In this document: piece by piece, positions 188 through 62,280 of the stretch
How the letters are laid out: the number at the start of each line of letters is the position of its first letter
How positions within the stretch are numbered: the first letter of the stretch is position 1
Assembly (NCBI GenBank): GCA_964400675.1
Contig: CAYNVO010000001.1
Coordinates: 267,919-331,918, forward strand
Source: an uncultured Dehalococcoidales bacterium
GTDB lineage: Bacteria > Chloroflexota > Dehalococcoidia > GIF9 > UBA5629
Reading direction: 5' to 3'
DNA length: 64,000 bases
The notes under the pieces: model-generated
The model's input: the letters and a program-made list of their open reading frames with translations, nothing else
Databases searched by the model: none
Told to the model about the DNA's origin: nothing
Position numbers and translations under genes: made by a program

Positions 188-946
188 ATGGAATTTTTTG
201 ACCTTATGAGTATCTCACACCGCTATATGGAGATACTAAACCCTTCCACGTCTGAAAAAATCATCAAGCTTGGCACACTACTCAAATTGAAAAAAGGGGA
301 CCGGGTCATCGACTTCGGTTGTGGCTGTGCTGAGCCCCTCACTCTATGGGCTGAGGAATTTGGTATCATTGGTATTGGCATAGATATATCCGAGTATTTC
401 TGCGACCGAGCCAGGAAAAAGCTGGCCATGAGAGGATTGTCGGACCAAATCGAAATCGTTTGCTCCCCTGCGGCTGACTATGTATTTAAAGAGGGGGCTT
501 TCGATGCAGCAACATGTATTGGATCAACGTTTGTTTTTGGCGGTTATCAGCAGACGATCCAGGCAATGAAGAGGGCTGTCCATCAGAGTGGACGCCTTGG
601 TATCGGCGAAACTCATTGGCTTAGCACCCAGATACATCCAGAATATGCCCAAAAACAGACAACTACCCACACAGAAGCGGAACTAGCTCGATTTACCCGG
701 GACGAAGGCTTTGAACTCGAATACATAATCCGTGCAAGCTACGACGATTGGGACAGATACATTTCGGATGGCTGGTATGGACTGATACGTTGGCTTGAGG
801 AAAACCCTAACCACCCTGACTATGAACAAGTATTCAATCATTTTCGTATTGACCAGGATGATTATTTACAGTTCCAACATCAATATATGGGCTGGGCTAT
901 GTACTGCCTCGCTCCCATCAAATCTCATTCGACAGATAGTATATAA
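188..946 (+). CDS. Class I SAM-dependent methyltransferase
   Basis: Glycine-rich motif I VIDFGCGCAEP about 45 aa from the N-terminus; size typical of the family. Confidence 0.7.
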   Translation: MEFFDLMSISHRYMEILNPSTSEKIIKLGTLLKLKKGDRVIDFGCGCAEPLTLWAEEFGIIGIGIDISEYFCDRARKKLAMRGLSDQIEIVCSPAADYVFKEGAFDAATCIGSTFVFGGYQQTIQAMKRAVHQSGRLGIGETHWLSTQIHPEYAQKQTTTHTEAELARFTRDEGFELEYIIRASYDDWDRYISDGWYGLIRWLEENPNHPDYEQVFNHFRIDQDDYLQFQHQYMGWAMYCLAPIKSHSTDSI

Positions 947-1124
947 TGAAATTACATTTATTGATATTGTCTTTTCAGCCTGTGATACCTCGTAGAAATG
1001 CACTTAATATGAGTCAACATCAGATAATCCTAAATTCTAGTAGCTTGGGTTACGTAAGAAATAGACACTATTAAATAGCTAAGGCGAATTTCAGTTCGAA
1101 GGTTTTAATGGTTCTACCTATTGA

Positions 1125-1313
1125 TACCCCAGCTCCACCATTCAAGTCCCCTCCGTTTGATAACATCCCCAACGTAAGGCAACTTTTGAGTTACAGATAG
1201 CGTTGGGATATACCACATTGGAAATGACTAGGCGCTATACACAGGCATTAGGATTTGAGGATGTGTTTAAGAGGCATGTGGTGGCATCACCCGTGGATAG
1301 GCTGGGAAGGTAG
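1125..1313 (+). pseudogene. Tyrosine recombinase/integrase C-terminal remnant
   Basis: The frame between stops translates to ...NVRQTFELQIALGYTTLEMTRRYTQAL..., matching the integrase C-terminal box (LLGHssIstTqrYtH) including the catalytic Tyr. There is no upstream catalytic domain and no start codon. Confidence 0.45.
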
Positions 1314-1383
1314 GGTAGACCAGTAGTAGGCAATCATTTGATTTCATGATTAGGCAGGTGGACAATATCAAAGAATGCCAAGT

Positions 1384-2658
1384 CTAATTACATATCTTTG
1401 TCAACGCAGTTGTTAGTTCTGGTAATTTCCTATAAGTACTACATACTTGCCAAAGAAGTGCTAAGAGCATGTCGCTACGCCCCTGTGATTTATACATTTC
1501 CAATCTGGGTGTTATGAGTTGTGTCTCATTCAGGTCCAACTTATCAGCAGTGAACCCATTGGTAATAATGCTATTTAATACCTGTTGTATATGATTGAAT
1601 AAAATATCTGAATCGGCTTGCTTTAATTTTGCTTTGAATACGGTGAGAAACATTTTGAATATTTTCTGATATTCTTTAAGTAAGGCAAATTCAGCAGTCA
1701 ATATGATTAGCGGAATCGCAGCTTTATCACATATACTTTTCTTTGTGCTATCTCTTTTTCGCACTTCTTCACTCTCATTAGAGCTTTTGCCATAATGCCC
1801 GCCTCCGTTGTATTCTATTGCTATTTGGATGACACCGCTTTCATCGCATAGAGCAAAATCAAAATGTCCACCCCATAGTAGTTTTTTCTCGCTGTCTGTC
1901 CAATTAATACTCTGTATATCAACGAATGCCTTTATCTCTCTCCCTTGAAAACATTTAAGTGGACTGAGCCAAATTTCGCTAATTACTTTCTTGATTTGGT
2001 TTTCTTGAAAGCCAAAATTAGCTTTCTTTTTAAGTCTATTTCTTTTTTGTGCCTCTTCCTTGATTAGTTCTTCAAGCTCACGATTTCCTTCTGGTTCGAG
2101 CTTGAGTATTTTTTCTTCGATGCTAGTCATCATATCTGCTGCAGCCCATTCGTTGATTACTCTCAGATAGGCTACTTCAAATTTCGATGGGTCACGACCT
2201 TTATCATTCTTAAAGGAAGATATTTCATAGTCAATATCAGTGCACATATCCCAGAAAAGTGGAAAATACATTTCAGCTATTTTCTGCTGGAGCTTTGCAG
2301 GATAACCAGCAATCTGTAATTTGGTCAAAAATCTTAGAAAATCGATGGTAATAGATGCATGATATAGTGGATTATCAAGCCCTTGCTCTACAGGAAATAT
2401 GAGCCCTTTATTGAATAGATCGATTACTTCCTTTTCATTCAGTTTTGTGTTTGCGTATATTACCTCAATCAGCTTCTCTTTAGAGACAAGATTATCAAGG
2501 TCATCATGAAGCATTAGCCTTTCATTAGCAACCATCATGACCATATTCTTGAGAAAGTCTTCACCTTGCATAGGTTTTATACCATTATAAGCTTTCCTAA
2601 ATAACAATGTGGAAAGCCAGGGCAAAAGTTCTTCTTTCCGTCCAGTAAGCCCCACCAT
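1384..2658 (-). CDS. Hypothetical protein with a central Vsr/DUF559/DUF2726-like PD-(D/E)xK endonuclease-fold domain
   Basis: The segment HFDFALCDESGVIQIAIEYNGGGHYG...EEVRKRD...ICDKAAIPLIILT fits the Vsr/DUF559 restriction-endonuclease-like pattern. The gene is AT-rich relative to its flanks, and the remaining ~330 aa are helical and unassigned. Confidence 0.5.
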   Translation of the reverse strand: MVGLTGRKEELLPWLSTLLFRKAYNGIKPMQGEDFLKNMVMMVANERLMLHDDLDNLVSKEKLIEVIYANTKLNEKEVIDLFNKGLIFPVEQGLDNPLYHASITIDFLRFLTKLQIAGYPAKLQQKIAEMYFPLFWDMCTDIDYEISSFKNDKGRDPSKFEVAYLRVINEWAAADMMTSIEEKILKLEPEGNRELEELIKEEAQKRNRLKKKANFGFQENQIKKVISEIWLSPLKCFQGREIKAFVDIQSINWTDSEKKLLWGGHFDFALCDESGVIQIAIEYNGGGHYGKSSNESEEVRKRDSTKKSICDKAAIPLIILTAEFALLKEYQKIFKMFLTVFKAKLKQADSDILFNHIQQVLNSIITNGFTADKLDLNETQLITPRLEMYKSQGRSDMLLALLWQVCSTYRKLPELTTALTKICN

Positions 2659-2791
2659 TAAGCATAAATCATCGACTGATTACTTTTCGACTAGCCAGGA
2701 TTCCCACACACAATTAGCTATCCCATTACATCGTTTGATTGAAGGATTTCTGTTATCCTGCAAAGTAGAGAACAAGTCTTCTGCCACTGCG

Positions 2792-3007
2792 TTACTTGCT
2801 AAAAATCTTAGCATAAAGAGGAATCGCTATCACCAAAGCTACAACAAGAAATATCCACCATGTCCATATTGGCAACCATGTTGCCAGTAGCAACCCTAAT
2901 GCCACCCCAGCAAGAAACTTGACTGTTATCAATAGTAGGAGGTGACATTTTGGTAACTGTCTTAACTTTTCTATCCTCTTATCATACCAACGGACAATAC
3001 TTGCCAT
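2792..3007 (-). CDS. Small two-TM membrane protein (hypothetical)
   Basis: 71-aa ORF with two hydrophobic helices, co-oriented between the ICMT-like gene and the 424-aa gene; it overlaps a + strand ORF that looks spurious. Confidence 0.3.
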   Translation of the reverse strand: MASIVRWYDKRIEKLRQLPKCHLLLLITVKFLAGVALGLLLATWLPIWTWWIFLVVALVIAIPLYAKIFSK

Positions 3008-3308
3008 AGTATTTACCTCCTATCCCTGTTGTGAAACCATTGTACCACCTCCCAGTCAATATGCAAGGGGTTAATTGCTATGGTGAAATGTTCACCAAAT
3101 ACGAGAATCCGGGCATTAGGGAGAAGATACGCCAATCCCTCGAGTGGTTAATTTAAACCACGCAATCTCGCAGATTAGAGGTTTCAAGTGAACGAAAACT
3201 GGCCAGTGTTGTATTCAGATGGTTTGCTATTATCGGTCATATGGTCAGAAGATTAAAGCATATATGAGCAGGCAGTCCTGGATTAATATATTCAGCTTAG
3301 ACTTAACA

Positions 3309-4001
3309 TTACCAGACAAGCGGGATTAGCCGGTATTTCACTTGCCTGGCATACTCTCTATAGCCCGGCATTTCATTTTGCAGCGTGCGGTCTTCCAGAG
3401 CCGTGCGGATTACTATTATTGTTGTCGATATGCCGCTCAGCACAAAACCCCACCATGAACCTAAAATGAATGGATAGGCTAATATTGAGATGATTAAACC
3501 GGCATATCCCGGATGTCTCATTATCTTGTATGGGCCAGAGGTACAAACATATTGATTCCTATCATCCTGGATGCGGACTGTCCACTCAAATAATTTATTG
3601 ACTGCCATGGCCCAGAGCGCGAGCGGAATCACAGATACAAATATAAATATGCCTACGAAAGTTAACCAGAAAGGCATAAACGACCATTGGAATCTAACTG
3701 CATCGAACCCCATGACGACAAGGTTGCCAAGGGTTAATACGGGATAAATGGCTACCCATATCTTATCAAAGCCTTTTGTGCCTTCCTTGACAACGCTGCC
3801 GCGTTCATTCAACATCTCCGGATTCACTCTTGCCAGCACTACTGTACTTATCACCCAATAAATTGAAACCAGGCCCACGTATACCCACGCGTTTATCCAG
3901 GCAAGTGTACCCGCTGATATGAATAAGATAGCAAATCCGATGATGATAAGAATTGATTGTACAATGATTCCTCTAATGCCGAAGCGATTTAGATTGCTCA
4001 T
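3309..4001 (-). CDS. Isoprenylcysteine carboxyl methyltransferase (ICMT/PEMT) family membrane methyltransferase
   Basis: Multi-TM protein with the conserved C-terminal RHPGYAGLII...LGSWWG motif of the ICMT/phospholipid methyltransferase family. Confidence 0.6.
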   Translation of the reverse strand: MSNLNRFGIRGIIVQSILIIIGFAILFISAGTLAWINAWVYVGLVSIYWVISTVVLARVNPEMLNERGSVVKEGTKGFDKIWVAIYPVLTLGNLVVMGFDAVRFQWSFMPFWLTFVGIFIFVSVIPLALWAMAVNKLFEWTVRIQDDRNQYVCTSGPYKIMRHPGYAGLIISILAYPFILGSWWGFVLSGISTTIIVIRTALEDRTLQNEMPGYREYARQVKYRLIPLVW

Positions 4002-4069
4002 CTCTCACCCCCGATACGTTTAAAAAGTATTATACATCTGCATATTTCGTAATGGAATGCCACTATCGT

Positions 4070-4118
4070 AGGACTAAGGGTCAAAAGGTAGTGGGTTCGA
4101 ATCCCATCAGCCCAACCA
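4070..4118 (+). other. tRNA 3' fragment (T-arm plus acceptor 3' strand plus CCA); possible att-site remnant
   Basis: gtggg-ttcgaat-cccat T-arm is followed by cagccca-a-cca. No complementary 5' acceptor strand (tgggctg) and no D or anticodon arm within 90 nt upstream. Confidence 0.45.
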
Positions 4119-4380
4119 CCTGCTTGCATAAGTTTACAAAAGGTGGCTAATTTTTATAAAAATTTCACCTTGTTACCTGCTACACCTTTTAGCGTTTTGC
4201 GACCTTGTCGCAGCGGAAAGTTTGTTGTAGCATAGAGACTAGCTAGCAACATAGGCGTCTCACTGCTAGTCTCACATGGCGTGCTTGCAGTTTCTGCCGT
4301 TCACCAATATACTTAGGATGACCGTAGGTACCTTCACTTAATAGCACTAGGGCAAAGGGGTAACTTAGAACCGGGCAGAA

Positions 4381-5463
4381 TTGCCAGTGGAAATCAATGT
4401 TGGCTTGAAAGCTATTAAAAACGGGGGATTGATCAAAATTAGAGATGTCTCCTTGTGTTCCCTTGTCGTAATACTTGGCGTAATCCTTGTAGTTGCATGC
4501 GCACTTGGCTTAACAACATCTGCCTGTTCTTCGCTGCAACCGGTCTCGCTGCAGTTGCAGTGGGTCACCCAGGCCCAGTTTGCCGGGTACTATGTGGCAC
4601 TGGACAAAGGATGGTACCTCGACGAAGGAATTGACCTGAGTATAAAGCCTGGCGGGCCGGATCTCACGCCTATTGACCTGGTAGTAGACGGAGAGCGTGA
4701 CTTCGGCACCGGCCTGCTGGCTGACCTCTGTATTGCCGTCCAAGAGGGCAAGCCGGTTATAAGTATCGGCCAGATCCAGCAAAAGAACGGGCTACTTCTT
4801 ATTGCTAAAGAAGCTTCGGGTATCAAGCAGCCCAAAGATTTCGTTGGTAAGCGAGTCGGTGTCTGGCTCGGAAGCTGGGAGGCCCAATTCAATACGCTAA
4901 TGGCTAATGAAGGCATTGCATTGCAGGATGTCGAAGTGATATCTCAGGGATTTAGTATGGATCCCTTTATTAAAGGAGACATGGATGTAGCCTCAGCCAT
5001 GATTTACAACGAATACCATACGGTTCTGGAGAGTGGATTAGGAACGGAGGACCTTAATGTCATCGATTATGCCGATTATGGTCTGGGCTTTCCGGGTGAT
5101 ACACTTTTTACCAGCCGCCAGCTAGCCAAGCAGCATCCCGACTTGTGTATCCGCATGCTTCGTGCCAGTCTGCGGGGTTGGCAGTATGCCATAGATTATC
5201 CAGAGGAAGCAGTGGATATCGTGCTCAAGTACGACGAAAGCGGTGTGCAAACCCGGCTGCATCAGCTCTCGATGATGAATGAGATCTCAAAGCTTGTGCA
5301 AGTCCCGAGGCGTGATATTGGATATACGGACCGGACTACTGTAAAGCAGACTATATACATCCTGCGACAAAAGGTAATGAGTGGGCCATTACAGCCTGAG
5401 GATGTATATACTAATGACTTTTGGGAGCAAGCTTACGAACAGCAGGGAGAGACCACCGATTGA
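4381..5463 (+). CDS. ABC transporter substrate-binding protein, NMT1/THI5-like (NitT/TauT family)
   Basis: Signal peptide with a lipobox-like LTTSAC, then LQWVTQAQFAGYYVALDKGWY, typical of NMT1/THI5-like periplasmic binding proteins. The start may lie downstream of the track start. Confidence 0.65.
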   Translation: MPVEINVGLKAIKNGGLIKIRDVSLCSLVVILGVILVVACALGLTTSACSSLQPVSLQLQWVTQAQFAGYYVALDKGWYLDEGIDLSIKPGGPDLTPIDLVVDGERDFGTGLLADLCIAVQEGKPVISIGQIQQKNGLLLIAKEASGIKQPKDFVGKRVGVWLGSWEAQFNTLMANEGIALQDVEVISQGFSMDPFIKGDMDVASAMIYNEYHTVLESGLGTEDLNVIDYADYGLGFPGDTLFTSRQLAKQHPDLCIRMLRASLRGWQYAIDYPEEAVDIVLKYDESGVQTRLHQLSMMNEISKLVQVPRRDIGYTDRTTVKQTIYILRQKVMSGPLQPEDVYTNDFWEQAYEQQGETTD

Positions 5464-5525: not shown

Positions 5526-7301
5526 TTGTGGAGAAGTTGCTGGTATGCGATACTTTCATTGGTTCAGCACCATTGTCGTTCAGTTGTCATTGCCATGAAT
5601 AGCAATACACCAACAAAGAATAGACCAAAGAGCAGGCTAAAATTCAGCATAGCCACTAAGCTCTTAGCTTCCTTTCTTCTATTGCTGGTCGTTTCTTTTG
5701 CCATCATCTGCCTCCTCGTTACTCTTAACATGAAGGAGATACGAAGCTTTGCCGAGGAAAGCAGTATTGCCTTGGGTAATAGCGCAGTCAGCGATAGCAC
5801 CTCAGCACTGGAAGAACTGGGGGAGGCGGCTATAAAACAAAAAGCAATAGATGTATCAAATCAAGTAAAGATATATCTCGAGGGACATCCAGACCTTACT
5901 GCCGACGAAATTAGGAAAGATCCTAACCTCGGCCAGATTGCCGTACAGCCTGTAGGCCAGACGGGTTATACCGCTCTCTACGAAAAAGAAACAGGAATCA
6001 TGAGATTTCATCCCAATCCCAGCCTTATTGATTATGATATGCACGGTTTAAGCGACACGCTTCCTTCATTCTGGATGGTATTTCAACCAAGTCTTAGAGG
6101 CTCTATTTTCAGTGGGTATTATGATTGGGAAGATGCCGATGGAACGATACGACCAAAGTTCATGTATATGGTTCCCGTGGAAGGCACAATCTATATGGTA
6201 GCAGCAACCACGTATATTGATGAATTCTCGCAGCCAGCTATTATTACAAAGAACAAAATTGCGGCGGCAACTTCGCAGGCCATGGCGTACATTGACAGGC
6301 AAATCAAAAATACTCGAAATCTTTTCATAGGGCTTTTGCTGGCTATACTTGTGGTGGTTGTGGGGCTGGTCTTCTGGCTTTCAATAATGATAACCAATCC
6401 CATCAAAGCACTTACCAGGAGTTCTGAAATTATCGGAGGTGGAGACCTGGACTACAAGCTAGAAATAGAAACTGGAGATGAGCTAGAAGATTTGGCAAAT
6501 TCCTTCAATAAGATGGCGTCAGACTTAAAAAGGTATATTGAGGAGCTGCGTATCACTACTGCTGAGAAGGAGCGAATTGCTAAGGAGTTGGAAATTGCCA
6601 GGGGTATCCAGCAGAGCTTCTTGCCTGAGTATCCTCCTGAAGTAAAGGGGGTCGAACTAGCAGCTCTGAACCTTCCAGCTAAAGAGGTGGGTGGCGACTT
6701 CTATGACTTCATCCCCATTGGGCCAGACAAGTGGGGGTTGGTTATTGCCGATGTCTCCGGGAAAGGAATTCCCGCCGCGCTGTTTATGGCACTCTCAACA
6801 ACGCTGGTTCGTGCTAGCGCCACAGGCGGTATAGCACCTGCGAAGGCCATACAAAGAGCCAATGATTTGATTGCCGAGCATGACAAGACAAGCATGTTTG
6901 TGACTTTGTTCTATGGAGTTCTTGACGCAGAGAGGAACACATTCACCTATGTCAGTGCGGGGCATAACCCGCCCTTCGTGCTCGCCGGTTGTGGCAGCGA
7001 CACCATAATGCTGCAGGCTAAAGGAATCGCTCTGGGTGTAGTCCCCGACATTGGCCTGGAGGAAAAGGAAATCACTTTGAGCAGTGGGGATGTTGTTGTT
7101 CTCTATACAGATGGAGTAACCGAGGCTATTAACAACGAGGAAGAGCAATTCGGCCAAAGCAGACTGCTCGCCATAGCCGAGCAATTCCGTAGCCTTTCGG
7201 CCTCCGATATTATAAAACGAATTCAACAAGAAGTGTTTGAATTCAGTAGCGGACAGCCGCAATTCGATGACTTCACTCTGATGGTACTAAAAATTGTATG
7301 A
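5526..7301 (+). CDS. Membrane sensor PP2C-family serine phosphatase (TM, extracytoplasmic domain, TM, HAMP, SpoIIE/PP2C)
   Basis: Two TM helices flank a ~220-aa domain, followed by a HAMP-like segment and a C-terminal PP2C/SpoIIE region (GDFYDF...VIADVSGKG...YTDGVTE). An alternative start at ATG 5595 is possible. Confidence 0.75.
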   Translation: MWRSCWYAILSLVQHHCRSVVIAMNSNTPTKNRPKSRLKFSIATKLLASFLLLLVVSFAIICLLVTLNMKEIRSFAEESSIALGNSAVSDSTSALEELGEAAIKQKAIDVSNQVKIYLEGHPDLTADEIRKDPNLGQIAVQPVGQTGYTALYEKETGIMRFHPNPSLIDYDMHGLSDTLPSFWMVFQPSLRGSIFSGYYDWEDADGTIRPKFMYMVPVEGTIYMVAATTYIDEFSQPAIITKNKIAAATSQAMAYIDRQIKNTRNLFIGLLLAILVVVVGLVFWLSIMITNPIKALTRSSEIIGGGDLDYKLEIETGDELEDLANSFNKMASDLKRYIEELRITTAEKERIAKELEIARGIQQSFLPEYPPEVKGVELAALNLPAKEVGGDFYDFIPIGPDKWGLVIADVSGKGIPAALFMALSTTLVRASATGGIAPAKAIQRANDLIAEHDKTSMFVTLFYGVLDAERNTFTYVSAGHNPPFVLAGCGSDTIMLQAKGIALGVVPDIGLEEKEITLSSGDVVVLYTDGVTEAINNEEEQFGQSRLLAIAEQFRSLSASDIIKRIQQEVFEFSSGQPQFDDFTLMVLKIV

Positions 7302-7477: not shown

Positions 7478-7541
7478 GAGGGACTGTTCAGCCTGGGCGA
7501 AAGCTCCTCCTTCCGTCCAGTAAGCCCCACCATTTAGAAGA
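7478..7541 (-). pseudogene. Duplicated 5' fragment of the 1384..2658 gene family
   Basis: 27 bp identical to the start of the 424-aa gene (tccgtccagtaagccccaccat) plus ~35 bp similar downstream. It encodes MVGLTGRKEEL... then terminates after 33 codons. Confidence 0.5.
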
Positions 7542-7747
7542 TATCATTACCACAAATCAGCTGCGGTTTATCGCAAAATCCCCAGACCTGCTGGTTTTTC
7601 TTCGTAGGAGGGGCATTATAACCTCAAAATGCAAAGTTCGTCATGTTGTTTAGTGTAGGTGGCAAAGCGGCTTCTGTTAAAAGGGCTGCAGGATTAAAGG
7701 GCTGTTGGGTGTAGAGTTAGTAATCTACTCCCATAGTATTCTGAAAG

Positions 7748-10700
7748 CTAGTAGCCCTGAAAGCGTCTTCTGGAGATTATTATCAGCAAGCCCACCAGTA
7801 TAACAATAACAGCTATCGCAGCTACAAACAATATGCCTTCACCTATTCCTTCACCTATTCCTGCACTCGGTCCTCTGCTAGCACCGTTAACAGTGAAACT
7901 CCCTCTCTGGTCATCAATACTGACAGTATAAGTCCCTGGCTGAGTTTTAGCGATTGTGAACTTCACCGGCTGTGTACCCTGTGGACCAACGCTAACCATC
8001 CTGCTTTGCTCTACCTGTCCGTTTATCTTGAGGGTGAGATTATAGTTACCAGCCTCGTAACCGGTGTTGACAACATTGGTGGTGATAGTCACTGGCTGAC
8101 CAGCCGTTGTCTGCTGCGGGTTTACGCTCAGGTACTGCAGCGACATCTGAGCCGGATTAAGCGGACGAGGTGGTGTAGGCATTGGCGGTGAGGCTCGTGG
8201 TGCTGCTGGCATCGCTGGTGCTGCTATCGTTGGCCCGCCCGGGTCAACGATGGTGCCGTTGGCTGCTCCATCAGCATCGCCAAGCCCACCATCGGTTAAG
8301 GTGAGAGTTAGGACGTTATCGCCATCGTTACTGCCCACAAGGGACGTGCAATTTACCCATATCCCGTTCTGGCACTTCCAGTACTGGGTGCTTGCAGGCA
8401 TGCTGTAAGGAAGCGTAATGGTTATGGTCACTGTTGAGCCCGGGGTAATATTGGTGATGTTAAACGAGAAGAAGCCGTTGGGGAAGCTGAAGCCTGAGAG
8501 GGTTCCGCATGGAGTGGAGATTGCAGCGGTTAAGCCTGTGACGGAACCGCCGCTGGTGGTAAAGGTGGCAATGCCGGTGTTCGTGGCAGTGTTTACGCTC
8601 TGGGTTTGCTCGCCTGCTCTGTTAACGGTAAAGCCGTCGCTCAGAGTATCGGTTCCCGCAGGGGTGGTTACCGTGACATCCCTGGTACCGGGTGAAGCAT
8701 AGGATAGGATAGTGATATTGGCAGTTATCTGGGTATCGCTGTCCTCAGTAAAATTATCGGCTGTGACATAGCTGCCAAAGCCGCCAAATTTGACCGATGT
8801 AACGCCGCTAAAATGGGTGCCTGTTATGATGACGTCAAGTGTCTCGCCCTGGATGCCGGAGGTCGGATTTACACCGGTTACAGTGGGGGGTGCTTTATTT
8901 ACGGTGAACCCGCCAGTCAATGTGCCGGTGCCCCAGGGCGTTGTCACCGAGACATCCCTGACGCCAGTTGCCGCGTCACCGGCGATGGTTATATTGGCGC
9001 TTATCTGAGTGGCGGAGTCAAACGTGAAGTTGTTGACTGTTACGCCAGCGCCGAAGCTCACTGCCGTAGCTCCGTTGAAATCGGTGCCTGTTATGATGAC
9101 ATCGAGCGTTTGCTCCTGGATGCCGGAGGCAGGATTTACACCGGTTACAGTGGGTGGTGGTAGTGGCGCTGATGTATTTAGCAGTACCGAGACATTGTTG
9201 TCGTCATTATTAGCCACGGCGAGGTCGGGCTTGCCATCCCTGTTGAAATCGCCCACGGAGACGGAGCGGGGGTTTGTTCCCGCAGTATAGTTGTCCGCGG
9301 CGCGGAAGGTGCCGTCGCCATTGCCCAGCAGCACGGAGACATTGTTACTGTTAAAATTAACCACGGCCAGGTCGGGATTACCGTCCCTGTTGAAATCGCC
9401 CACGGCAACAGAGAAAGGGAATAACCCCGTGGCATAGTTCCCTGCCCCATTGAAGGTGCCGTCGCCATTGCCCAGCAGCACGGAGGTATTGGCACTGTTC
9501 TTATTAGCTGTGGCCAGGTCGGGGTTGCCGTCCTTGTTGAAATCGCCCACGGCGATGTAGACAGGCTCTGTTCCTACTGGATAGTCCACTGCCTGTAAGT
9601 TGAAGGTTCCGTCACCCACGCCGAGCAGCATGTAGACGGAGTTATTACCAGCATCGGTCACGGCCAGGTCGGGCTTGCCGTCCCGGTTGAAATCGCCCAC
9701 GGCAACAGAGTAGGGGACTCCCCTCGCGTCATAGGGCGCTGTGCTGAAGGCGCCGTTGCCATCGCCCAGCAGTATGGAGTAATTGACACTGCCAGAATTA
9801 GCTGTGGCAAGGTCGGGCTTGCCGTCCCTGTTGAAATCGCCCACAGCGACACAGAAGGGTAAATCTCCCACAGCATAGTTCACCGCGTCATCGAAGGTGC
9901 CATTGCCATCGCCCAGCAGTATGGAGACATTGTCGTCATTAACATTGGCTGTGGCGAGGTCGGGGTCACCGTCCCGGTCGAAATCGCCTGCGGCGATAGA
10001 GACAGGGCTTCTCCCCACGGCGTAGTTCAGCGGCGTGTTGAAGGCGCCGTTGCCATCGCCCAGCAGTATGGAGACGTTGTCGCTGCTCGAATTAGCCGTG
10101 GCCAGGTCGGGCTTGCCGTCCCTGTTGAAATCGCCGACTATGGTTGAGAAGGGGCCTGTTGCCGTGGCATAGTTCGCCGCGGCATTGAAGGAAAGGCTCT
10201 CCGGTGTTGCAGTATTAAGTAGAATGGAGACATTGTTTGTGCCGGCATTGGCTGCGGCGAGGTCGGGATTACCGTCCCTGTTGAAATCGCCCACGGCGAC
10301 ATACCAGGGGAAATGATCCACAGCATAGTTCACCGCCCCATTGAAGGTACCATTGCCATTGCCTAGTAGCACGGAGACATTGTCTGTGCTGGCATTGGCG
10401 GTGGCTAAGTCGGGGTTGCCGTCCCGGTTGAAATCGCCCACGGCTACAGAGTAGGGGCCGTTTCCCACGTCATATTTCACTGCCGGTAGGGTGAAGGTGC
10501 CGTCGCCCACGCCCAGCAGCACGGAGACATTGTTGGTGGTGTTATTGGCTGTGGCCAGGTCGGGGTTGCCGTCCCGGTTGAAATCGCCCACGGCTACAGA
10601 GTAGGGGTGGTCTCCCACATTATAGACGACCGCCGCTTTGAAGGTACCGTCGCCCTTACCCCGCAATATAGAGACAGTGTTTGCGCTATTATTGGCTACG

Positions 10701-11419
10701 GCCAGGTCGGGATTGCCGTCCTTGTCGAAATCGCCCACGGCAACAGAGGTGGGAGTCAACCCCACGGCATAGTTCGCTGCCGGTAGGATGAAGGTGCCAT
10801 CGCCGTTGCCCAGCAGCACGGAGACATTATTGTTGTTATGATTGGCTGTGGCCAGGTCGGGATTGCCGTCCCTGTTGAAATCGCCCACGGCGACAGAGAA
10901 GGGTAAATCCCCCACAGCATAGGTCGCTGCCTGTACGATGAATGCACCGGCGCCGTTGCCCAGCAGCACGGAGACATTGTCGTCGTCACAATTAGCTACG
11001 GCCAGGTCGGGATTGCCGTCCCTGTTGAAATCGCCCACGGCTACAGAGAGGGGGCTTCCCCCCACGGCATAGTTCGCTGCCGGTAGGGTGAAGGTGCCGT
11101 CGCCGTTGCCCAGCAGCACGGAGACATTATCGCCGTTACTATTGGCTGTGGCCAGGTCGGGATTGCCGTCCTTGTCGAAATCGCCCACGGCGACAGAGAA
11201 GGGACTTGTTCCCACGTTATAGTTCACCGCTGGATTGAAAGGCATGGCATAGGCATTGTACTGGGGAAAGGCAAAAAATAAGGTACAAAGAAGCAATGAA
11301 AGGAAAACACTTATAAGTTGCTTATTTGGACAATTTCGCTTAGCCAATTTACATGTACCAGCCTGCAAAGATGCCACCATGAAACTTATATATACGTTTG
11401 AAAAAAGCACAGATGCCAA
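7748..11419 (-). CDS. Large cell-surface protein: ~14 FG-GAP/VCBS repeats, two Ig-like (TIG) domains, a CARDB domain, C-terminal TM anchor
   Basis: N-terminal signal peptide; recurring VGDFNRDGNPDLA...NVSVLLGNGDGTF units; C-terminal GEGIGEG, a hydrophobic helix and an RRR tail. Near-identical ~140 bp DNA repeats generate many overlapping spurious ORFs. Confidence 0.8.
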   Translation of the reverse strand: MASVLFSNVYISFMVASLQAGTCKLAKRNCPNKQLISVFLSLLLCTLFFAFPQYNAYAMPFNPAVNYNVGTSPFSVAVGDFDKDGNPDLATANSNGDNVSVLLGNGDGTFTLPAANYAVGGSPLSVAVGDFNRDGNPDLAVANCDDDNVSVLLGNGAGAFIVQAATYAVGDLPFSVAVGDFNRDGNPDLATANHNNNNVSVLLGNGDGTFILPAANYAVGLTPTSVAVGDFDKDGNPDLAVANNSANTVSILRGKGDGTFKAAVVYNVGDHPYSVAVGDFNRDGNPDLATANNTTNNVSVLLGVGDGTFTLPAVKYDVGNGPYSVAVGDFNRDGNPDLATANASTDNVSVLLGNGNGTFNGAVNYAVDHFPWYVAVGDFNRDGNPDLAAANAGTNNVSILLNTATPESLSFNAAANYATATGPFSTIVGDFNRDGKPDLATANSSSDNVSILLGDGNGAFNTPLNYAVGRSPVSIAAGDFDRDGDPDLATANVNDDNVSILLGDGNGTFDDAVNYAVGDLPFCVAVGDFNRDGKPDLATANSGSVNYSILLGDGNGAFSTAPYDARGVPYSVAVGDFNRDGKPDLAVTDAGNNSVYMLLGVGDGTFNLQAVDYPVGTEPVYIAVGDFNKDGNPDLATANKNSANTSVLLGNGDGTFNGAGNYATGLFPFSVAVGDFNRDGNPDLAVVNFNSNNVSVLLGNGDGTFRAADNYTAGTNPRSVSVGDFNRDGKPDLAVANNDDNNVSVLLNTSAPLPPPTVTGVNPASGIQEQTLDVIITGTDFNGATAVSFGAGVTVNNFTFDSATQISANITIAGDAATGVRDVSVTTPWGTGTLTGGFTVNKAPPTVTGVNPTSGIQGETLDVIITGTHFSGVTSVKFGGFGSYVTADNFTEDSDTQITANITILSYASPGTRDVTVTTPAGTDTLSDGFTVNRAGEQTQSVNTATNTGIATFTTSGGSVTGLTAAISTPCGTLSGFSFPNGFFSFNITNITPGSTVTITITLPYSMPASTQYWKCQNGIWVNCTSLVGSNDGDNVLTLTLTDGGLGDADGAANGTIVDPGGPTIAAPAMPAAPRASPPMPTPPRPLNPAQMSLQYLSVNPQQTTAGQPVTITTNVVNTGYEAGNYNLTLKINGQVEQSRMVSVGPQGTQPVKFTIAKTQPGTYTVSIDDQRGSFTVNGASRGPSAGIGEGIGEGILFVAAIAVIVILVGLLIIISRRRFQGY

Positions 11420-11675
11420 TTATCAGGATTTATCTCTGTGCTATATTGGGAAGTATACAGACTGTCGTATTATGTGTCAATGGATTAGGGAATATCGTGC
11501 AGCAAGTGGTAGCGTCCTTTGTCTGAATTCTTATATCTGCTTCAGCCTGTAATATATGGCCAGGGAAAATGCTCTTATAGGTTCCTGTTTTTCACATGCC
11601 CTATTACTATCTTGCTATTGACGTGTCATCGTGATAGAGATAGACTTAGGGAAAATATATGAAGCGGGGTAAAAG

Positions 11676-13724
11676 ATGCGAAATTGTTTAACGGTTCTAT
11701 TGATATTTATGTTCTTACTGGCAGGATGCTTGATGCCGCCCAGATTAGAGGTAAGCCTGGCGTCTCCTGCCGATGGCAGTTCGGTATTATCGCTAACGCC
11801 TACGCTTATGTGGGGGGGTGGTGGCGGAGCCGCCACCTATCGGTTAATGGTGGCAACGGATAACAATTTCCAACGTTTAGCTATCGATGTGAACAATATA
11901 GGTGACATCAGCTACACTATACCTTCGGGCAAACTGAATGGTGACACCTGGTATTTTTGGAAGGTTCTAGCCCGACAGGGCAGCCAGGTATCAGACTGGA
12001 CGGCGCCATGGTCCTTCCATACCCCGGGTGGAGTTGGTCCGGCGAGTACTGGGACTGTTCGAGTCAGTGCTACCTTTGATGGGTCACCGTGGTCCGGCTC
12101 GGTAAATTACAGTGTCAGCGGCCCTTTCTCGGATACGGATAATTCGGTTCCGTGGAATTTTACCAGTGTGCCAACCGGCAACTATACGGTTACTTACAAT
12201 TATGGTGGGCCTGCCGGTGCCTCGCTGACTAGCATTACTCCAGCGCCAACTCTGGAATTGGACACAGGCGGTACGGTGCACTTCGTCTTGAATTTCCAGA
12301 GCCAATCCAGTTCCAGTATAAAGGTCGCCGCCACTTTGAATGGCTCGCCATGGTCGGGAAGCGTGAGCTACTCATTGACCGGGCCTTTCAAGGATGCGGA
12401 TGTAATAGTTCCCCAGACCTTCAGCAATATGCCGACGGGGACGTATACGCTGACGTATAATTCAGGTGGTCCGTCTGGCGCTGTACTCAGCAGTATTTCA
12501 CCCTTGCCGACACAAACGCTAGCTTCGAGTAGCAGTATTGCCTATACGCTGAACTTCTCGACAATCTCAGCATCGAACCTGTCGGTGACTGCATCGTATA
12601 ATGGGGTGACATGGTCAGGGGCGGTATTATATTCGCTGTCCGGGCCGATTAACAATAACTATACTTCCGTTCCTTTACAATTGAATAATGCCTCTCCCGG
12701 AACGTATTACATCAATTATAAAGGAGGCGGTCCACCTGGAGCGACGCTGGGTAATATTGCCCCGGGACAATCACTTGTGTTACCCAGCCGAGGGTCGGCT
12801 GGGTTTGTCCTTAATTACTATGCACAACAGCAAACCGGCAACGTGGTGGTTGATGCCAACTTGAATGGCTCGCCGTGGTCCGGCATGGTCAGCTATATGT
12901 TGAGCGGTCCCTTCCAGAGCAACGATAATCAGGTGCCACGTACCTATAATAGCGTGCCTGTGGGCAACTATAGCATCACGTATACGGGTGGTGGACCCCC
13001 GGGCGCCGTATTGACCAGTATCACGCCGGCACCAATGCAGTCGCTGGCAGTCGGTCGAACCATCGGATTCAATTTGAACTTTACGGCGCAGCCCAGCGCC
13101 GGTACCATCGTAGTCAATGCCATGGTAGACGGACAGCCGTGGAGTACGCAACCTGGTTCCGGTCCAATCAGCTATACAGTAACCGGTCCCGCTAATGATT
13201 CCGGGAATGGCATCCCCGGCACTTTCAGCAGCATGCCTGCCGGGATGTATACTTTAAGCTACAATTCCGGCGGACCTATCGGTGCCACATTAACCGGCAT
13301 TTCACCGGCTCCGACGCAAAACCTGGCACCGGGTGGCTCTATCGAATATACGTTGCAGTTCACCGGGCAGCCCAAGGGATACGTTACCGTTGAAGCTACG
13401 CTGGATGGGCAACCATGGTCTGGTTCGGTTGGTTACGTGCTGCAGGGACCCTATGTGGAATCAGGCAGTTCCGCACCGCGCAACTTTGCCAATGCGCCCC
13501 AGGGGAGCTACAGCGTTCAGTACAGCGCTGGAGGTCCACCACAATCTTCATTTATCGGCGTTTCTCCTCAATCGCAGATGTTACCTGCGGGAGGCTCTAT
13601 AACCTTCACAATTATGTTCCACTTCGAAGGAGGACTAGAGCCGGGTCCTATGCCGGGACCAGTTCCAGAGCCTTTCCCACCAGTACCTGAACCTCAAAAT
13701 GGTCTACCCTTGCTGGGAGAATAG
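11676..13724 (+). CDS. Secreted lipoprotein with 6-7 tandem ~95-aa repeats and a Pro-rich C-terminus
   Basis: Lipobox LLAGC; repeated LNGSPWSGSVSYSLxGPFxDxDxxVPxTFxxxPTGTYTLTYNSGGPxGAxL units; divergent from the FG-GAP gene. Confidence 0.7.
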   Translation: MRNCLTVLLIFMFLLAGCLMPPRLEVSLASPADGSSVLSLTPTLMWGGGGGAATYRLMVATDNNFQRLAIDVNNIGDISYTIPSGKLNGDTWYFWKVLARQGSQVSDWTAPWSFHTPGGVGPASTGTVRVSATFDGSPWSGSVNYSVSGPFSDTDNSVPWNFTSVPTGNYTVTYNYGGPAGASLTSITPAPTLELDTGGTVHFVLNFQSQSSSSIKVAATLNGSPWSGSVSYSLTGPFKDADVIVPQTFSNMPTGTYTLTYNSGGPSGAVLSSISPLPTQTLASSSSIAYTLNFSTISASNLSVTASYNGVTWSGAVLYSLSGPINNNYTSVPLQLNNASPGTYYINYKGGGPPGATLGNIAPGQSLVLPSRGSAGFVLNYYAQQQTGNVVVDANLNGSPWSGMVSYMLSGPFQSNDNQVPRTYNSVPVGNYSITYTGGGPPGAVLTSITPAPMQSLAVGRTIGFNLNFTAQPSAGTIVVNAMVDGQPWSTQPGSGPISYTVTGPANDSGNGIPGTFSSMPAGMYTLSYNSGGPIGATLTGISPAPTQNLAPGGSIEYTLQFTGQPKGYVTVEATLDGQPWSGSVGYVLQGPYVESGSSAPRNFANAPQGSYSVQYSAGGPPQSSFIGVSPQSQMLPAGGSITFTIMFHFEGGLEPGPMPGPVPEPFPPVPEPQNGLPLLGE

Positions 13725-13776
13725 CGATGACGGGACACGGAATGTATAGAATTGAGATGAAAAGGAGACTAATACG

Positions 13777-14580
13777 ATGAGGGTTTGTTTAGCTATCCTG
13801 CTTATGGTATCAATGCTCCTGGTTGCCTGTAATGTTCCAGGCACAGTGCCACCAGCCAGCAGCGAGTTGCGCATAATCACTGAAGTGTATCCACCATATA
13901 ATTTCGTGGATAAAAACGGTAATGTTACCGGGCAAAGCACGGAAATTGTCCAGGCTATTTTGGAGAAAACCGATACGCAAGCTGAAATAGAGGTCATGCC
14001 GCTGAGCGAAGGTTTAGCCCTGGCTCAAAAGGGACCCAAGGTGGTGATTTATTCGCTCAATAAGACTCCCCAGCGCGAGAATCTTTTCAAGTGGGTTGGA
14101 CCGATTGGCAACTATGAACAGGCGTTTTATGCCAGTAAGGGCTCAACGCTTGCGCTTAATAGACTTGAGGACGCCAAGAACGTCAAGAAGATTGGCGTCT
14201 ACAAGGGCGATGCCGGGGCTCAGTTTCTGGCTTCGCAGGGGTTTACCAATTTAGACGAGAGCCTGACTGATGTGGAAGCGTTGAAAAAGCTCACGGATGG
14301 CACGGTACAATTGTGGCTGGGAAATAAAGGAGGGCTGTCGATTACTGCTGAGGAGGCAGGAGTAAATCCATCTGACCTGGTCATGTTACCCACCGTTGTC
14401 ATAAGAGCCGACCTGTACATAGCGTTCAGCAAGGATATCTCTTATAGCACGGTAAAAGCCTGGCAGAGTGCCCTGGATGACTTGAAGCAGGAAAGGGATA
14501 TTGACGATAAAACGGTTTACGAAAAAATACAGGCAAAATACAGCGACCCTGACTATATAGATAGCTTATTGCACGAATAG
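13777..14580 (+). CDS. Solute-binding protein family 3 (amino-acid type) ABC transporter substrate-binding lipoprotein
   Basis: Signal peptide with lipobox LLVAC; family 3 SBP-like size and sequence. Confidence 0.6.
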   Translation: MRVCLAILLMVSMLLVACNVPGTVPPASSELRIITEVYPPYNFVDKNGNVTGQSTEIVQAILEKTDTQAEIEVMPLSEGLALAQKGPKVVIYSLNKTPQRENLFKWVGPIGNYEQAFYASKGSTLALNRLEDAKNVKKIGVYKGDAGAQFLASQGFTNLDESLTDVEALKKLTDGTVQLWLGNKGGLSITAEEAGVNPSDLVMLPTVVIRADLYIAFSKDISYSTVKAWQSALDDLKQERDIDDKTVYEKIQAKYSDPDYIDSLLHE

Positions 14581-48858: not shown

Positions 48859-48917
48859 CTGTCATTCTGAGCAGAGCGAAGAATCTCCAGACCCTTCGCT
48901 ATCGCTCAGGGTGACAA
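48859..48917. repeat. Palindromic intergenic repeat copy (gtcattctgagcagagcgaagaatct / ...cgctcagggtgac)
   Basis: Imperfect ~60-bp palindrome between icd and leuD. Confidence 0.65.
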
Positions 48918-54455: not shown

Positions 54456-54552
54456 ACGCCTTACCTTCCCATGTACGATTGCCGCAGATAGAGCATTGTA
54501 ACATATTTCGTCGAGCCTTGAATAGCGTATAGGCACATATCTGACCCATTGT

Positions 54553-54616
54553 CTGTCATTCTGACCCTGACCCTGACCCTGAGCCGAAAGCGAAGGGGAA
54601 GGGGAAGGGGAAGAAT
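54553..54616. repeat. Palindromic repeat copy (gtcattctg-[accctg]x3-agccgaaagcgaa-[gggga]x3-agaatc), left arm of an inverted pair
   Basis: Reverse complement of 56575..56632. Confidence 0.7.
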
Positions 54617-54668
54617 CGCACACATTGACTACATAACAGATTGCCTTGCATGGTAGAATAGAGACCTG

Positions 54669-56460: not shown

Positions 56461-56640
56461 GTCACTCTGATGCCTTTCCTGTCACCCTGAAAATTTTCCT
56501 GTCACCCTGAACGCTAGTGAAGGGTCTAAAGCTTCTTCACTTGCGGAGTTTATCCTAGGCGGATGAGAGATTCTTCCCCTTCCCCTTCGCTTTCGGCTCA
56601 GGGTCAGGGTCAGAATGACAGAAGCGAAGGGCCCAGAATG
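56461..56640. repeat. Compound copy of the intergenic repeat family ([cctgtcaccctga] x3 ... right arm of inverted pair ... gtcagaatgacag)
   Basis: 56575..56632 is the reverse complement of 54553..54616; track ORFs 56482..56667 and 56718..56957 lie inside repeats. Confidence 0.7.
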
Positions 56641-56845: not shown

Positions 56846-56886
56846 TTATCCTACTGCAATTCAGCCAGGCTGTCAATTTTGGTGTC

Positions 56887-56998
56887 GTGTCATTCTGAGC
56901 GCAGCGAAGAATCTTACGTTGTTCCCATCACCGAGATTGCCGCAGAGTTTACCCTGAGTGAGATTCTTCGGTCACTCCGTTTCCTTAGAATGACACGA
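56887..56998. repeat. Palindromic intergenic repeat copy (gtcattctgagcgcagcgaagaatct...gagattcttcggtcactccg...agaatgacac)
   Basis: Inverted arms seen directly; shares accgagattgccgc with other copies. Confidence 0.7.
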
Positions 56999-57062
56999 AA
57001 CTAAAGGCTAGCAATGACATTCTTCATCCCTCTTGCCTCCAGGTCGCCATTGAGTTAGACTG

Positions 57063-61669: not shown

Positions 61670-61826
61670 TTTTGCTCAGTGCTCTGGCTAGATAATAGAG
61701 GTGGGAGGGGGTGACCCTCCCATTTTTAGTGTGTTTAATTATAGGTGTTTTGGGGTCATCTGGTCAAGGCAGTGTGCCATTTTGTCATCGCGAGGGGCGT
61801 AGCCTCGTGGCGATCTCATGTTATGT

Positions 61827-62270
61827 CCTGTCATTCTGAGCGTAGCGAAGAATCTCATGTCTTCTCTGCTACCGAGGTTGCCACGTGGAGTTTACCCTGA
61901 GCGAGATTCTTCGGTCACTCCGTTCCCTCAGAATGACAGGAAGGGCGCTCAGAATGACAGGGGCGAAAGGTTCAGTTCCTTCGACGGGCTCAGGATGAGC
62001 GGGGATGATAGGTAGATTCTTCGACAAGCTCAGAATGACAGGAAGGGTGCTCAGAATGACAGGAAGGGCGCTCAGAATGACAGGGGCGAAGGGTTCAGTT
62101 CCTTCGACGGGCTCAGGATGAGCGGGGATGATAGGTAGATTCTTCGACAAGCTCAGAATGACAGGAAGGGTGCTCAGAATGACATGAAGGGTGTTCAGAA
62201 TGACAGGGGCGAAGGACTCAGTTCCTTCGACAGGCTCAGGATGAGCGGGGGTAACAGGCAGGATGAGCGG
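61827..62270. repeat. Compound array of the palindromic repeat family: one full palindromic element then ~2.5 tandem copies of a ~121-bp unit
   Basis: The ~121-bp unit contains gctcagaatgacagg[a/g]agggc sub-repeats and gctcaggatgagcgg. Track ORFs 61818..62015 and 61869..62150 are repeat artefacts. Confidence 0.8.
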
Positions 62271-62280
62271 TAAGAAGGGT

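Follow-up and report, generated by a model that had tools for sequence, protein, structure and literature searches.

In Dehalococcoides, genomic islands stand in tandem downstream of one small-RNA gene, ssrA, and each is bounded by a direct repeat of its 3' end, shortly before which stands a conserved motif specific to the element (McMurdie et al. 2011, PMC3146451). Their target is the transfer-messenger RNA (tmRNA) gene, their repeat is 20 bp long, and their six-gene integration module lies on the reverse strand and has a 540-aa serine recombinase, DsiB; many of the tandem islands lack this module and were proposed to be mobilizable in cis (PMC3146451). These islands are the closest described case to the locus analysed here, which opens a 64,000-nucleotide stretch of an uncultured Dehalococcoidales bacterium (contig CAYNVO010000001.1, positions 267,919 to 331,918, forward strand; this whole stretch is called the window, and coordinates refer to it unless a locus is named). 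A preliminary description, made from the letters of positions 1125–4118, had proposed one decayed integrative element, with an integrase remnant and a tRNA 3' fragment bracketing AT-rich cargo. The interval consists of two adjacent decayed modules, M2 and M3, in an array with five junctions behind a tRNA-Ala(GGC) gene, and in all probability it belongs to a tandem series of small integrative modules accreted at the 3' end of that gene. The locus is of the same kind as the ssrA islands, with another target and another enzyme class. The bacterial class is the same, but the target here is tRNA-Ala(GGC), with a repeat of up to 48 nt and one tyrosine recombinase of 298 aa as the enzyme; neither integration at ssrA with a 20-bp repeat nor a DsiB serine-recombinase module is found.

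Islands and prophages in tRNA genes (P4/lambda type) resemble the locus in having an intact tRNA gene at one end and a repeat of its 3' part at the other, an integrase gene next to the tRNA, atypical base composition, presence or absence among relatives, decay by deletion and accretion at hotspots. In contrast to them, the integrase here is short and Xer-like, lacks an arm-binding domain and is read in the direction of the tRNA, the modules measure 1.3–3.4 kb, and several carry a diverged mimic of the tRNA end instead of a faithful copy. Cis-mobilizable elements (CIMEs), on the evidence of work on ICESt1 and ICESt3 of Streptococcus thermophilus, reportedly keep their attachment (att) sites, have lost their recombination genes and take part in accretion-mobilization in tandem. 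Modules M1, M2 and M4 of the present array likewise stand in tandem, have att-type sites on both sides and contain no intact recombinase; the difference is that no autonomous element adjoins them in the window, and mobilization would be hypothetical. The CIME concept is also cited in the work on ssrA islands (PMC3146451). Accretion at tRNA hotspots is well known, and the locus as a whole is such a case, an ordinary genome scar in the form of an unusually modular stack.

Anatomy of the array behind tRNA-Ala(GGC)

An intact tRNA-Ala(GGC) gene lies on the plus strand just outside the window (L001 9578–9650, which is 163–235 nt upstream of window base 1), and its 3' half, ...GACTGGCAGTCAGAAGGTAGTGGGTTCGAATCCCATCAGCTCCA, faces the array. 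From this gene the order is M1, J1 (1140), M2, J2 (2657), M3, J3 (4118), M4, J4 (7534) and older DNA. All five junctions are built alike, with a tRNA 3' half or its mimic, a CCA and a new left arm in succession. Accessory DNA, as opposed to core genome, makes up the first ~7.5 kb of the window and probably extends to ~11.6 kb.

The junction that carries most of the evidence is J3 (4071–4118, plus strand; GACTAAGGGTCAAAAGGTAGTGGGTTCGAATCCCATCAGCCCAACCA), the right end (attR) of M3, where the 3' part of the tRNA is repeated in direct orientation. Its 48 nt copy the 3' half of tRNA-Ala(GGC), from the anticodon loop to CCA, and are identical to it at 40 of the 48 positions without gaps and at all of the central 27. 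This 27-mer, AAGGTAGTGGGTTCGAATCCCATCAGC, occurs once in the window (4085–4111) and was matched in none of 100 shuffles. The donor gene stands ~4.3 kb upstream in direct orientation. The T-arm of the copy equals that of the tRNA; the acceptor strand reads CAGCCCA where the tRNA has CAGCTCC, two substitutions, so that the "perfect" T-arm and acceptor of the preliminary description is exact for the T-arm and overstated for the acceptor. Its remark that the piece has no 5' half is borne out, as neither ARAGORN nor Rfam detects a whole tRNA or tmRNA anywhere in the window, where no Rfam family passes its threshold. The same description proposed a search for an intact tRNA or tmRNA with a matching 3' end, and this leads to the tRNA-Ala(GGC) gene upstream on the same strand. 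A tmRNA is not the integration target: its model matches the generic T-loop only (10.9 bits), and no tmRNA gene is present in the window or its flank.

Five other loci (L071, L025, L042, L051 and L054) have a second copy of the tRNA 3' half 0.85–5 kb downstream of the tRNA, beginning at the same anticodon-loop position as window 4071. A tRNA with such a downstream repeat is the classical attL/attR signature, and positions 4071–4118 are a displaced or duplicated att core. The core of the preliminary idea, decayed integrative DNA at a tRNA gene with this copy as att core, thus holds.

Two relics of tyrosine integrase genes lie upstream of J3. They were identified by blastx of window 950–4400 against the open reading frames (ORFs) of relatives, which gave two strong matches, both to a 298-aa integrase found next to tRNA-Ala in other genomes. 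The 3' relic (1185–1313, plus strand) comprises the last 42 codons and the stop of a Xer-like tyrosine integrase, and is 91–93% identical in amino acids to residues 257–298 of the integrases in L071, L103, L020 and L072 (blastx E 2e-18; tblastn 3e-20; 77–87% nucleotide identity to integrase 3' ends). It runs in a single frame without frameshifts to its native stop, and its peptide, FELQIALGYTTLEMTRRYTQALGFEDVFKRHVVASPVDRLGR*, keeps the catalytic Tyr named in the preliminary description and has LGY in place of LGH, the His being replaced by Tyr. As had also been noted, no catalytic domain precedes it. The remnant had first been placed at 1125–1313; 1185–1313 is homologous to integrase, and the prefix with 'NVRQ' belongs to another frame and is not.

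The other relic forms the left end of M3 (2658–2806, plus strand). It includes an integrase-side arm and 5' leader (2658–2734), a TTG start at 2735 and the first ~18–24 codons, with the peptide LIEGFLLSCKVENKS..., after which homology to the integrase stops; in tblastn it covers integrase residues 1–24, and the junction alignment begins at CCA. Positions 2642–2830 match other loci from the tRNA end through the first integrase codons (blastx E 1e-12 to 8e-16), and 2679–2788 is 84–89% identical in nucleotides to the DNA just past tRNA-Ala in L103, L092, L093 and L060. As the C-terminal piece precedes the N-terminal piece on the same strand, the two are not one gene in place.

An alignment to integrase profiles had been proposed as a check of the remnant, and it gave no match: searches of Pfam, NCBIfam and PDB with the 50-aa C-terminal peptide and with the 93-aa ORF at 2609–2890 were empty, so the identification rests on the intact neighbours of tRNA-Ala in relatives, which are members of PF00589 (Phage_integrase). 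Of the catalytic set of this family (R, K, HxxR, H/W, Y), the window fragments have the Tyr box only, and they give no profile score above threshold. The small plus-strand ORFs at 1108–1313 and 2609–2890 are pseudogene debris. No intact integrase and no other integrase-like ORF at E<0.1 was found in the 64-kb window. Since relics and no functional integrase stand beside the att sites, the window element is a decayed former member of the tRNA-targeting integrative elements and not an active one.

The remaining junctions carry mimics of the tRNA end. J1, the right arm of M1 (1085–1140, plus strand), reads ...GGTTCTACCTATTGATACCCCAGCTCCA-CCA and ends in CAGCTCCA+CCA at 1130–1140. It is a diverged mimic that can be aligned to the tRNA 3' half with gaps, with the last 11 nt identical, and is one of only three GTTC...CCACCA sites within the first 12 kb; a J1-like mimic lies before an arm of the F type, described below, in L124. 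J2, the right arm of M2 (2570–2657, plus strand), is a copy of a repeat that we call D14. It reads ...GGAAAGCCAGGGCAAAAGTTCTTCTTTCCGTCCAGTAAGCCCCA-CCA, has the end AGCCCCA+CCA and is followed by the integrase-side arm of M3. Its conserved core (2611–2657) follows a degenerate 5' part, and it is 96–100% identical to copies in L068, L008 and many metagenome contigs. J4, the right arm of M4 (7490–7547, plus strand), is a second D14 copy with AGCCCCA+CCA ending at 7534. It is 84% identical to window 2615–2672 and is followed by ~13 nt that resemble the flank after J2 and the GGTAATATCATTACC-type flank after D14 elsewhere. Scanning the window for further GTTC...CCACCA junctions returned J1–J3 and chance intragenic matches only, and no att relic was recognised near 11.6 kb.

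M1 begins right after the discriminator base of the tRNA (junction J0), where the tRNA is followed by GTTTTC... and CCA is not encoded, while the CCA is encoded in every relative examined. The displaced CCA of tRNA-Ala appears to sit at 1138–1140, because the tRNA identity of M1 ends at CAGCTCCA and the former CCA with the arm that followed it is now found at J1. This arm, the K-arm or left arm of M2 (1141–1184, plus strand), is what remains of the 3' end of a different integrase gene, of the Arm-binding type and on the minus strand. Positions 1130–1166 are 92% identical to the tRNA-Ala end and flank in L047, where an opposite-strand gene for a 396-aa integrase (PF00589 and Arm-DNA-bind_4) ends, followed by a ~7-kb run of ORFs. 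Window 1130–1184 is an att junction with a minus-strand relic of this integrase. The same breakpoint joins the K-arm to the integrase 3' relic in L114, where the pair comes right behind an intact tRNA-Val(TAC), in a module with different cargo that ends in D14. Since the same fusion is found there, this chimeric, integrase-dead left end predates the M2 of the window, and M2 had most likely lost the capacity for autonomous movement before it arrived. An observation on the L114 module concerns its gene at 1073–2002 (minus strand), which by eye resembles TIR or deoxyribosyltransferase proteins and has no Pfam match.

The tRNA hotspot and its modules in relatives

A scan of species-representative genomes for the tRNA 3' end returned 106 loci, nearly all in metagenome-assembled genomes labelled Dehalococcoidia/Chloroflexota. 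Upstream, the order VTT-domain protein(s), often a TM2 protein, tRNA-Ala is kept in dozens of Dehalococcoidia genomes. Downstream, no content is conserved across these loci, and none of the methyltransferase, DUF2726, 71-aa, ICMT, NMT1 and SpoIIE genes of the window was found after the tRNA in the representative genomes. Because upstream synteny is kept and downstream genes are not conserved, the 3' side of tRNA-Ala is a hypervariable hotspot.

Four of these loci (L071, L103, L020 and L072) have an intact ORF for the 298-aa integrase, which starts ~90 nt past the tRNA on the same strand and whose stop codon ends at +986 in all four. The protein matches PF00589 (3e-34) together with SAM-like N-terminal domains. 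By NCBIfam it is Xer-like, with XerA, XerD and XerC as best models, and it lies below the cut-off of these and of every other equivalog model; against the integron-integrase model TIGR02249 it scores 62.8 bits, with a cut-off of 265 bits. Other stages of decay of this family are seen in L060, L005, L093 and L043. A different Xer-like enzyme, 26–31% identical, stands at tRNA-Ala in L051, L054 and L058, and with the Arm-binding type of L047 at least three integrase families use the tRNA-Ala(GGC) hotspot.

We also observed that the last ~20–60 integrase codons recur on their own, at 3678–3734 in L071, 7677–7742 in L103, 164–295 in L114 and 624–689, 1447–1629 and 2175–2231 in L043. Several genomes have such extra 3' ends at conserved breakpoints and 1–1.4 kb past intact copies, which gives the impression that this end of the integrase gene serves in its own right as a repeated junction or a target for insertion.

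Close relatives of the window differ from it by modules. The preliminary description had suggested a comparison with relatives, and insertions and deletions fall exactly here. The F arm, the left arm of M4 (4119–4192, plus strand), is 85–88% identical to the DNA just past tRNA-Ala in L008 and L068, where F follows the intact tRNA directly and the similarity extends over window 4080–4192; what lies after 4118 in the window thus adjoins the tRNA in these two loci. L156 reads intact tRNA-Ala, F, a 0.8-kb module, D14, 30 nt of the integrase arm and the 3' end of the ICMT gene, and is without M1, M2, the N-terminal integrase relic and the 71-aa ORF. L119 and L168 have the region of the 71-aa ORF and the ICMT gene, J3 (here too a tRNA fragment and not a whole tRNA) and the F arm of M4 in common with the window at 90–98% nucleotide identity, and one additional [F-cargo-D14] module exactly between the CCA of J3 and the F arm on the NMT1 side. 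Presence, absence or replacement of DNA at the same site is accordingly found in all five of these relatives. The distal modules M3 and M4 are common to close relatives and the tRNA-proximal ones are lineage-specific, which is what insertion at the tRNA end predicts.

D14 and F recur far beyond these loci. Scanning metagenomes with the last 22 nt of D14 yielded 61 contigs. D14 is ~95 nt long, with an almost invariant core of ~47 nt ending in AGCCCCACCA, and in most copies conservation extends over another ~50 nt on the upstream side, where TGCTAYAAT is found. On every contig that reaches a tRNA gene, D14 stands downstream of it, and several types of flank follow the CCA of D14. The F arm (~75 nt) contains the palindromes TTGCAAAAGTTTGCAA and ACAAATTTGT and a promoter-like TTGCAA-N17-TACAAA; the palindromes of D14 and F taken together are these two and TGCTACAATTGT. 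Each of the 36 copies of F (L008, L068 and L110–L170) directly follows ...CCACCA, which is supplied by tRNA-Ala(GGC), tRNA-Ala(TGC), tRNA-Val(TAC), a tRNA fragment, D14 or a D14-like mimic. Units of the form [F-cargo-D14], 0.8–3.4 kb long, make up arrays, such as the two in L110/L068, and in the 61 metagenome contigs integrase-less D14/F modules recur behind three tRNAs. In a module with a gene for a 478-aa protein (L123, L134 and L147), homology ends exactly at the CCA of D14, and the neighbours differ on both sides.

We read D14 as the probable element-side att arm, derived from the 48-nt tRNA core or mimicking it, because it has the same length, position and acceptor-CCA end; F we read as one family of left arms. 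Two other identities for D14 were considered and rejected. It is not a small RNA gene (signal recognition particle RNA-like, tRNA-like or a tmRNA piece): loci with full copies gave no Rfam match, and an alignment of 42 copies had no conserved fold (-0.79 kcal/mol, calculated with RNA parameters on one strand) and no covariation. Nor is it the N-terminus of the DUF2726 protein encoded in M2, since homologues of that protein start ~29 codons later and the same DNA adjoins unrelated genes. Clustering of the ORFs around the 61 D14 copies revealed no conserved recombinase or other neighbour gene, and neither D14 nor the integrase had a match in viral contigs.

Origin of the array

All five junctions, and the missing CCA too, are explained by one integration after another at the tRNA end, and we infer a course as follows. 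Each module would have come as a circle in whose att site the tRNA 3' half was copied or mimicked. A tyrosine integrase would have recombined this site with the 3' end of the tRNA gene, with the crossover at or just before the terminal ...CCACCA, leaving the tRNA intact and placing the module's own tRNA mimic at the far end. Earlier occupants would have been pushed downstream, and as each insertion displaces prior DNA in that direction, the module nearest the tRNA would be the newest. Deletions have destroyed all integrase genes in the stretch, so that nothing here is capable of autonomous movement any longer. An integrase from another locus might still move modules in trans.

Some observations weigh against this account. 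The order of arrival is deduced from where the modules lie and from only five to six relatives. The array is fixed in the source population, as all 19 contigs that have the first gene of the window, from several samples and assemblers, show one arrangement. Beyond the last ~10 nt, D14 and J1 bear only a weak likeness to the tRNA 3' half, no integrase is tied to the integrase-less modules, and none is intact in the window. Homologous recombination between repeated junctions could also mimic site-specific excision, and the F arm of the window looks like a hybrid of the two F copies of L119, which site-specific and homologous recombination could equally well yield.

The last point, with the want of a recombinase gene inside modules of the M1, M2 and M4 type, would fit an account in which these modules were never mobile: D14 and F would be dispersed intergenic repeats, strains would differ by homologous recombination, deletion and gene conversion, and M3 would be the sole island delivered by an integrase. 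Cargo that often consists of ordinary metabolic or regulatory genes, the modest identity of only ~80% between shared modules in different contigs and the empty comparison with viral contigs point the same way. We nevertheless consider it unlikely, because F is never free (every copy follows the CCACCA of a tRNA, a fragment or a mimic), D14 is downstream of a tRNA wherever this can be seen, homology between shared modules breaks exactly at CCA, and D14 equals an att core in length, position and acceptor-CCA end. Still less favoured is the single element of about 1125–4118 in which the genes for the DUF2726 protein, the small ORF and the ICMT protein are the cargo and the integrase pieces were rearranged internally. 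It would agree with the common integrase family of both relics and with the AT-richness of the entire interval, and a circle opened inside its integrase gene would give C-terminus, cargo, att and N-terminus. What makes it improbable is the complete junction of D14, CCA and integrase arm at 2657 between the relics, the independent occurrence of K-arm and 3' relic behind tRNA-Val in L114 with other cargo, and the arrangement in L156, where D14, the integrase arm and the ICMT gene stand behind a different module without the DUF2726 gene or the C-terminal relic; moreover, it is the tRNA, outside the window, that represents the true left att. The bracketing and the left boundary at the integrase remnant, as first proposed, are to be given up for these reasons: 1185–1313 and 4071–4118 are not parts of one element, and because the second relic and its own CCA junction intervene, the tRNA copy pairs with 2658–2806, an integrase piece absent from the first description. 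That a coincidental tRNA-like stretch and integrase-like peptide, or a misassembly, explain the locus deserves practically no credence. Profile searches with the 50-aa peptide alone were indeed empty, but a 27-nt exact match with none expected, the blastx E value of 2e-18 and the agreement of 19 contigs already refute it.

Under the preferred account, accretion of integrative modules at the tRNA end, only the modules bounded by D14 and F may reward closer study. Tentatively, and with considerable doubt, D14 and F can be seen as the att halves of integrase-less modules that Dehalococcoidia stack behind tRNA-Ala(GGC), tRNA-Ala(UGC) and tRNA-Val(UAC). The tRNA might then be the anchor of an integron-like capture platform, with a Xer-like integrase acting in trans and the acceptor end in a role similar to attI. 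Integrons are alike in having an array of small modules beside a Xer-related recombinase gene, a fixed insertion point and the newest module nearest to it. They differ from this locus, which is not an integron by the integrase test (TIGR02249 score below the cut-off), in which no attC-type hairpins are apparent (no attC-specific model was run), and whose modules have promoter-like sequences and, in many cases, two genes, which may be oriented either way. The pdif modules of Acinetobacter plasmids are small, recombinase-less units between 28-bp XerC/XerD sites in inverted pairs. They share with the present modules their small size, the lack of a recombinase, short Xer-type sites and shuffled contexts, whereas the junctions here are ~170 nt long, form direct repeats, and are chromosomal and anchored on tRNA 3' ends. 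Our literature searches found the papers on ssrA islands and none on tRNA-Ala arrays or D14-like junctions in Dehalococcoidia.

The tRNA-Ala(GGC) gene is a much-used insertion hotspot in uncultured Dehalococcoidia, comparable to the ssrA hotspot through which dehalogenase genes spread in Dehalococcoides. If the D14/F modules are mobile, they would offer streamlined anaerobes a simple, sequence-defined route to swap single genes, often defence-like or surface genes, and D14 and F could serve as markers for mining this accessory gene pool from metagenomes.

Cargo genes and further observations

The preliminary description listed a nuclease-domain gene, a tiny membrane ORF and an ICMT-like methyltransferase gene as AT-rich cargo, and Pfam and base composition support this. 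The fraction of G and C is 0.38 in M2 (1141–2657), 0.364 in its DUF2726 gene and 0.425 in M3 (2658–4118), as compared to 0.497 in the whole window.

The cargo of M2 is a gene for a DUF2726-domain protein (1384–2571, minus strand; Pfam PF10881, 4e-9), probably a nuclease, as DUF2726 presumably belongs to the PD-(D/E)xK nuclease superfamily. The called ORF (1384–2658, 424 aa) starts inside D14. Twenty-eight homologues of 385–408 aa span ~91–93% of it, and because they begin ~29 codons later the called start is doubtful; the true start is probably near 2571, with the first ~29 codons, which overlap D14, untranslated. The homologues occur in unrelated contexts, one of them beside an N6-methylase, an M78 peptidase and a DUF4411 gene. 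As those in other contigs have no D14, F or tRNA copy nearby, the gene travels in several contexts.

M3 has two cargo genes on the minus strand. The 71-aa ORF (2792–3007) has two predicted membrane helices and weak SLATT-like matches only, below cut-off. It is 100% identical in L119 and absent from L156, where the arm joins the 3' end of the ICMT gene directly. The gene at 3309–4001 encodes a 230-aa membrane methyltransferase of the PEMT/ICMT family (Pfam PEMT 1e-11, ICMT 7e-10), which is 88–91% identical in L119 and L168, beside the same tRNA-copy junction, and 100% identical over 28 residues on the cut contig L156. In L119 a CAP12/Pycsar-type TIR-domain gene (594–1775, minus strand) was observed between the 71-aa ORF and the ICMT gene.

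M1 carries a gene for a 252-aa S-adenosylmethionine (SAM)-dependent methyltransferase (188–946, plus strand; Pfam Methyltransf_25/11, CMAS), whose homologues adjoin D14 junctions in L123 and L130. It matches PADLOC mad2 (methylation-associated defence) at 1.8e-15, which may reflect the shared SAM-binding fold only; the DUF2726, 71-aa and ICMT proteins had no match in PADLOC. The module cargo seen in the relatives L119 and L114 suggests that the tRNA hotspot collects defence-type genes. The cargo of M4 consists of genes for an NMT1-family binding protein (4381–5463) and a HAMP-SpoIIE phosphatase (5526–7301).

A palindrome, CTATTAAATAG (+TAAG), flanks the M1 methyltransferase gene on both sides (10–24 and 1068–1083) and may be a terminator, an operator, an insertion scar or a chance occurrence in AT-rich DNA. 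Downstream of J4, a gene for a 1223-aa protein (7748–11419, minus strand) with tandem repeat units of ~147–150 nt (families D1–D5) and immunoglobulin-like repeats seems to reside in the oldest module. Immediately after a D14 copy, L123 has a homologue of window 11600–13885. Farther along the window, dispersed and inverted repeats of the type GTCATTCTGAGCG...AGCGAAGAATCT lie at 48859–48887, 54552–54622, 56573–56636, 56883–56999 and 61824–62295, with three tandem units of 123 nt at 61927–62295.

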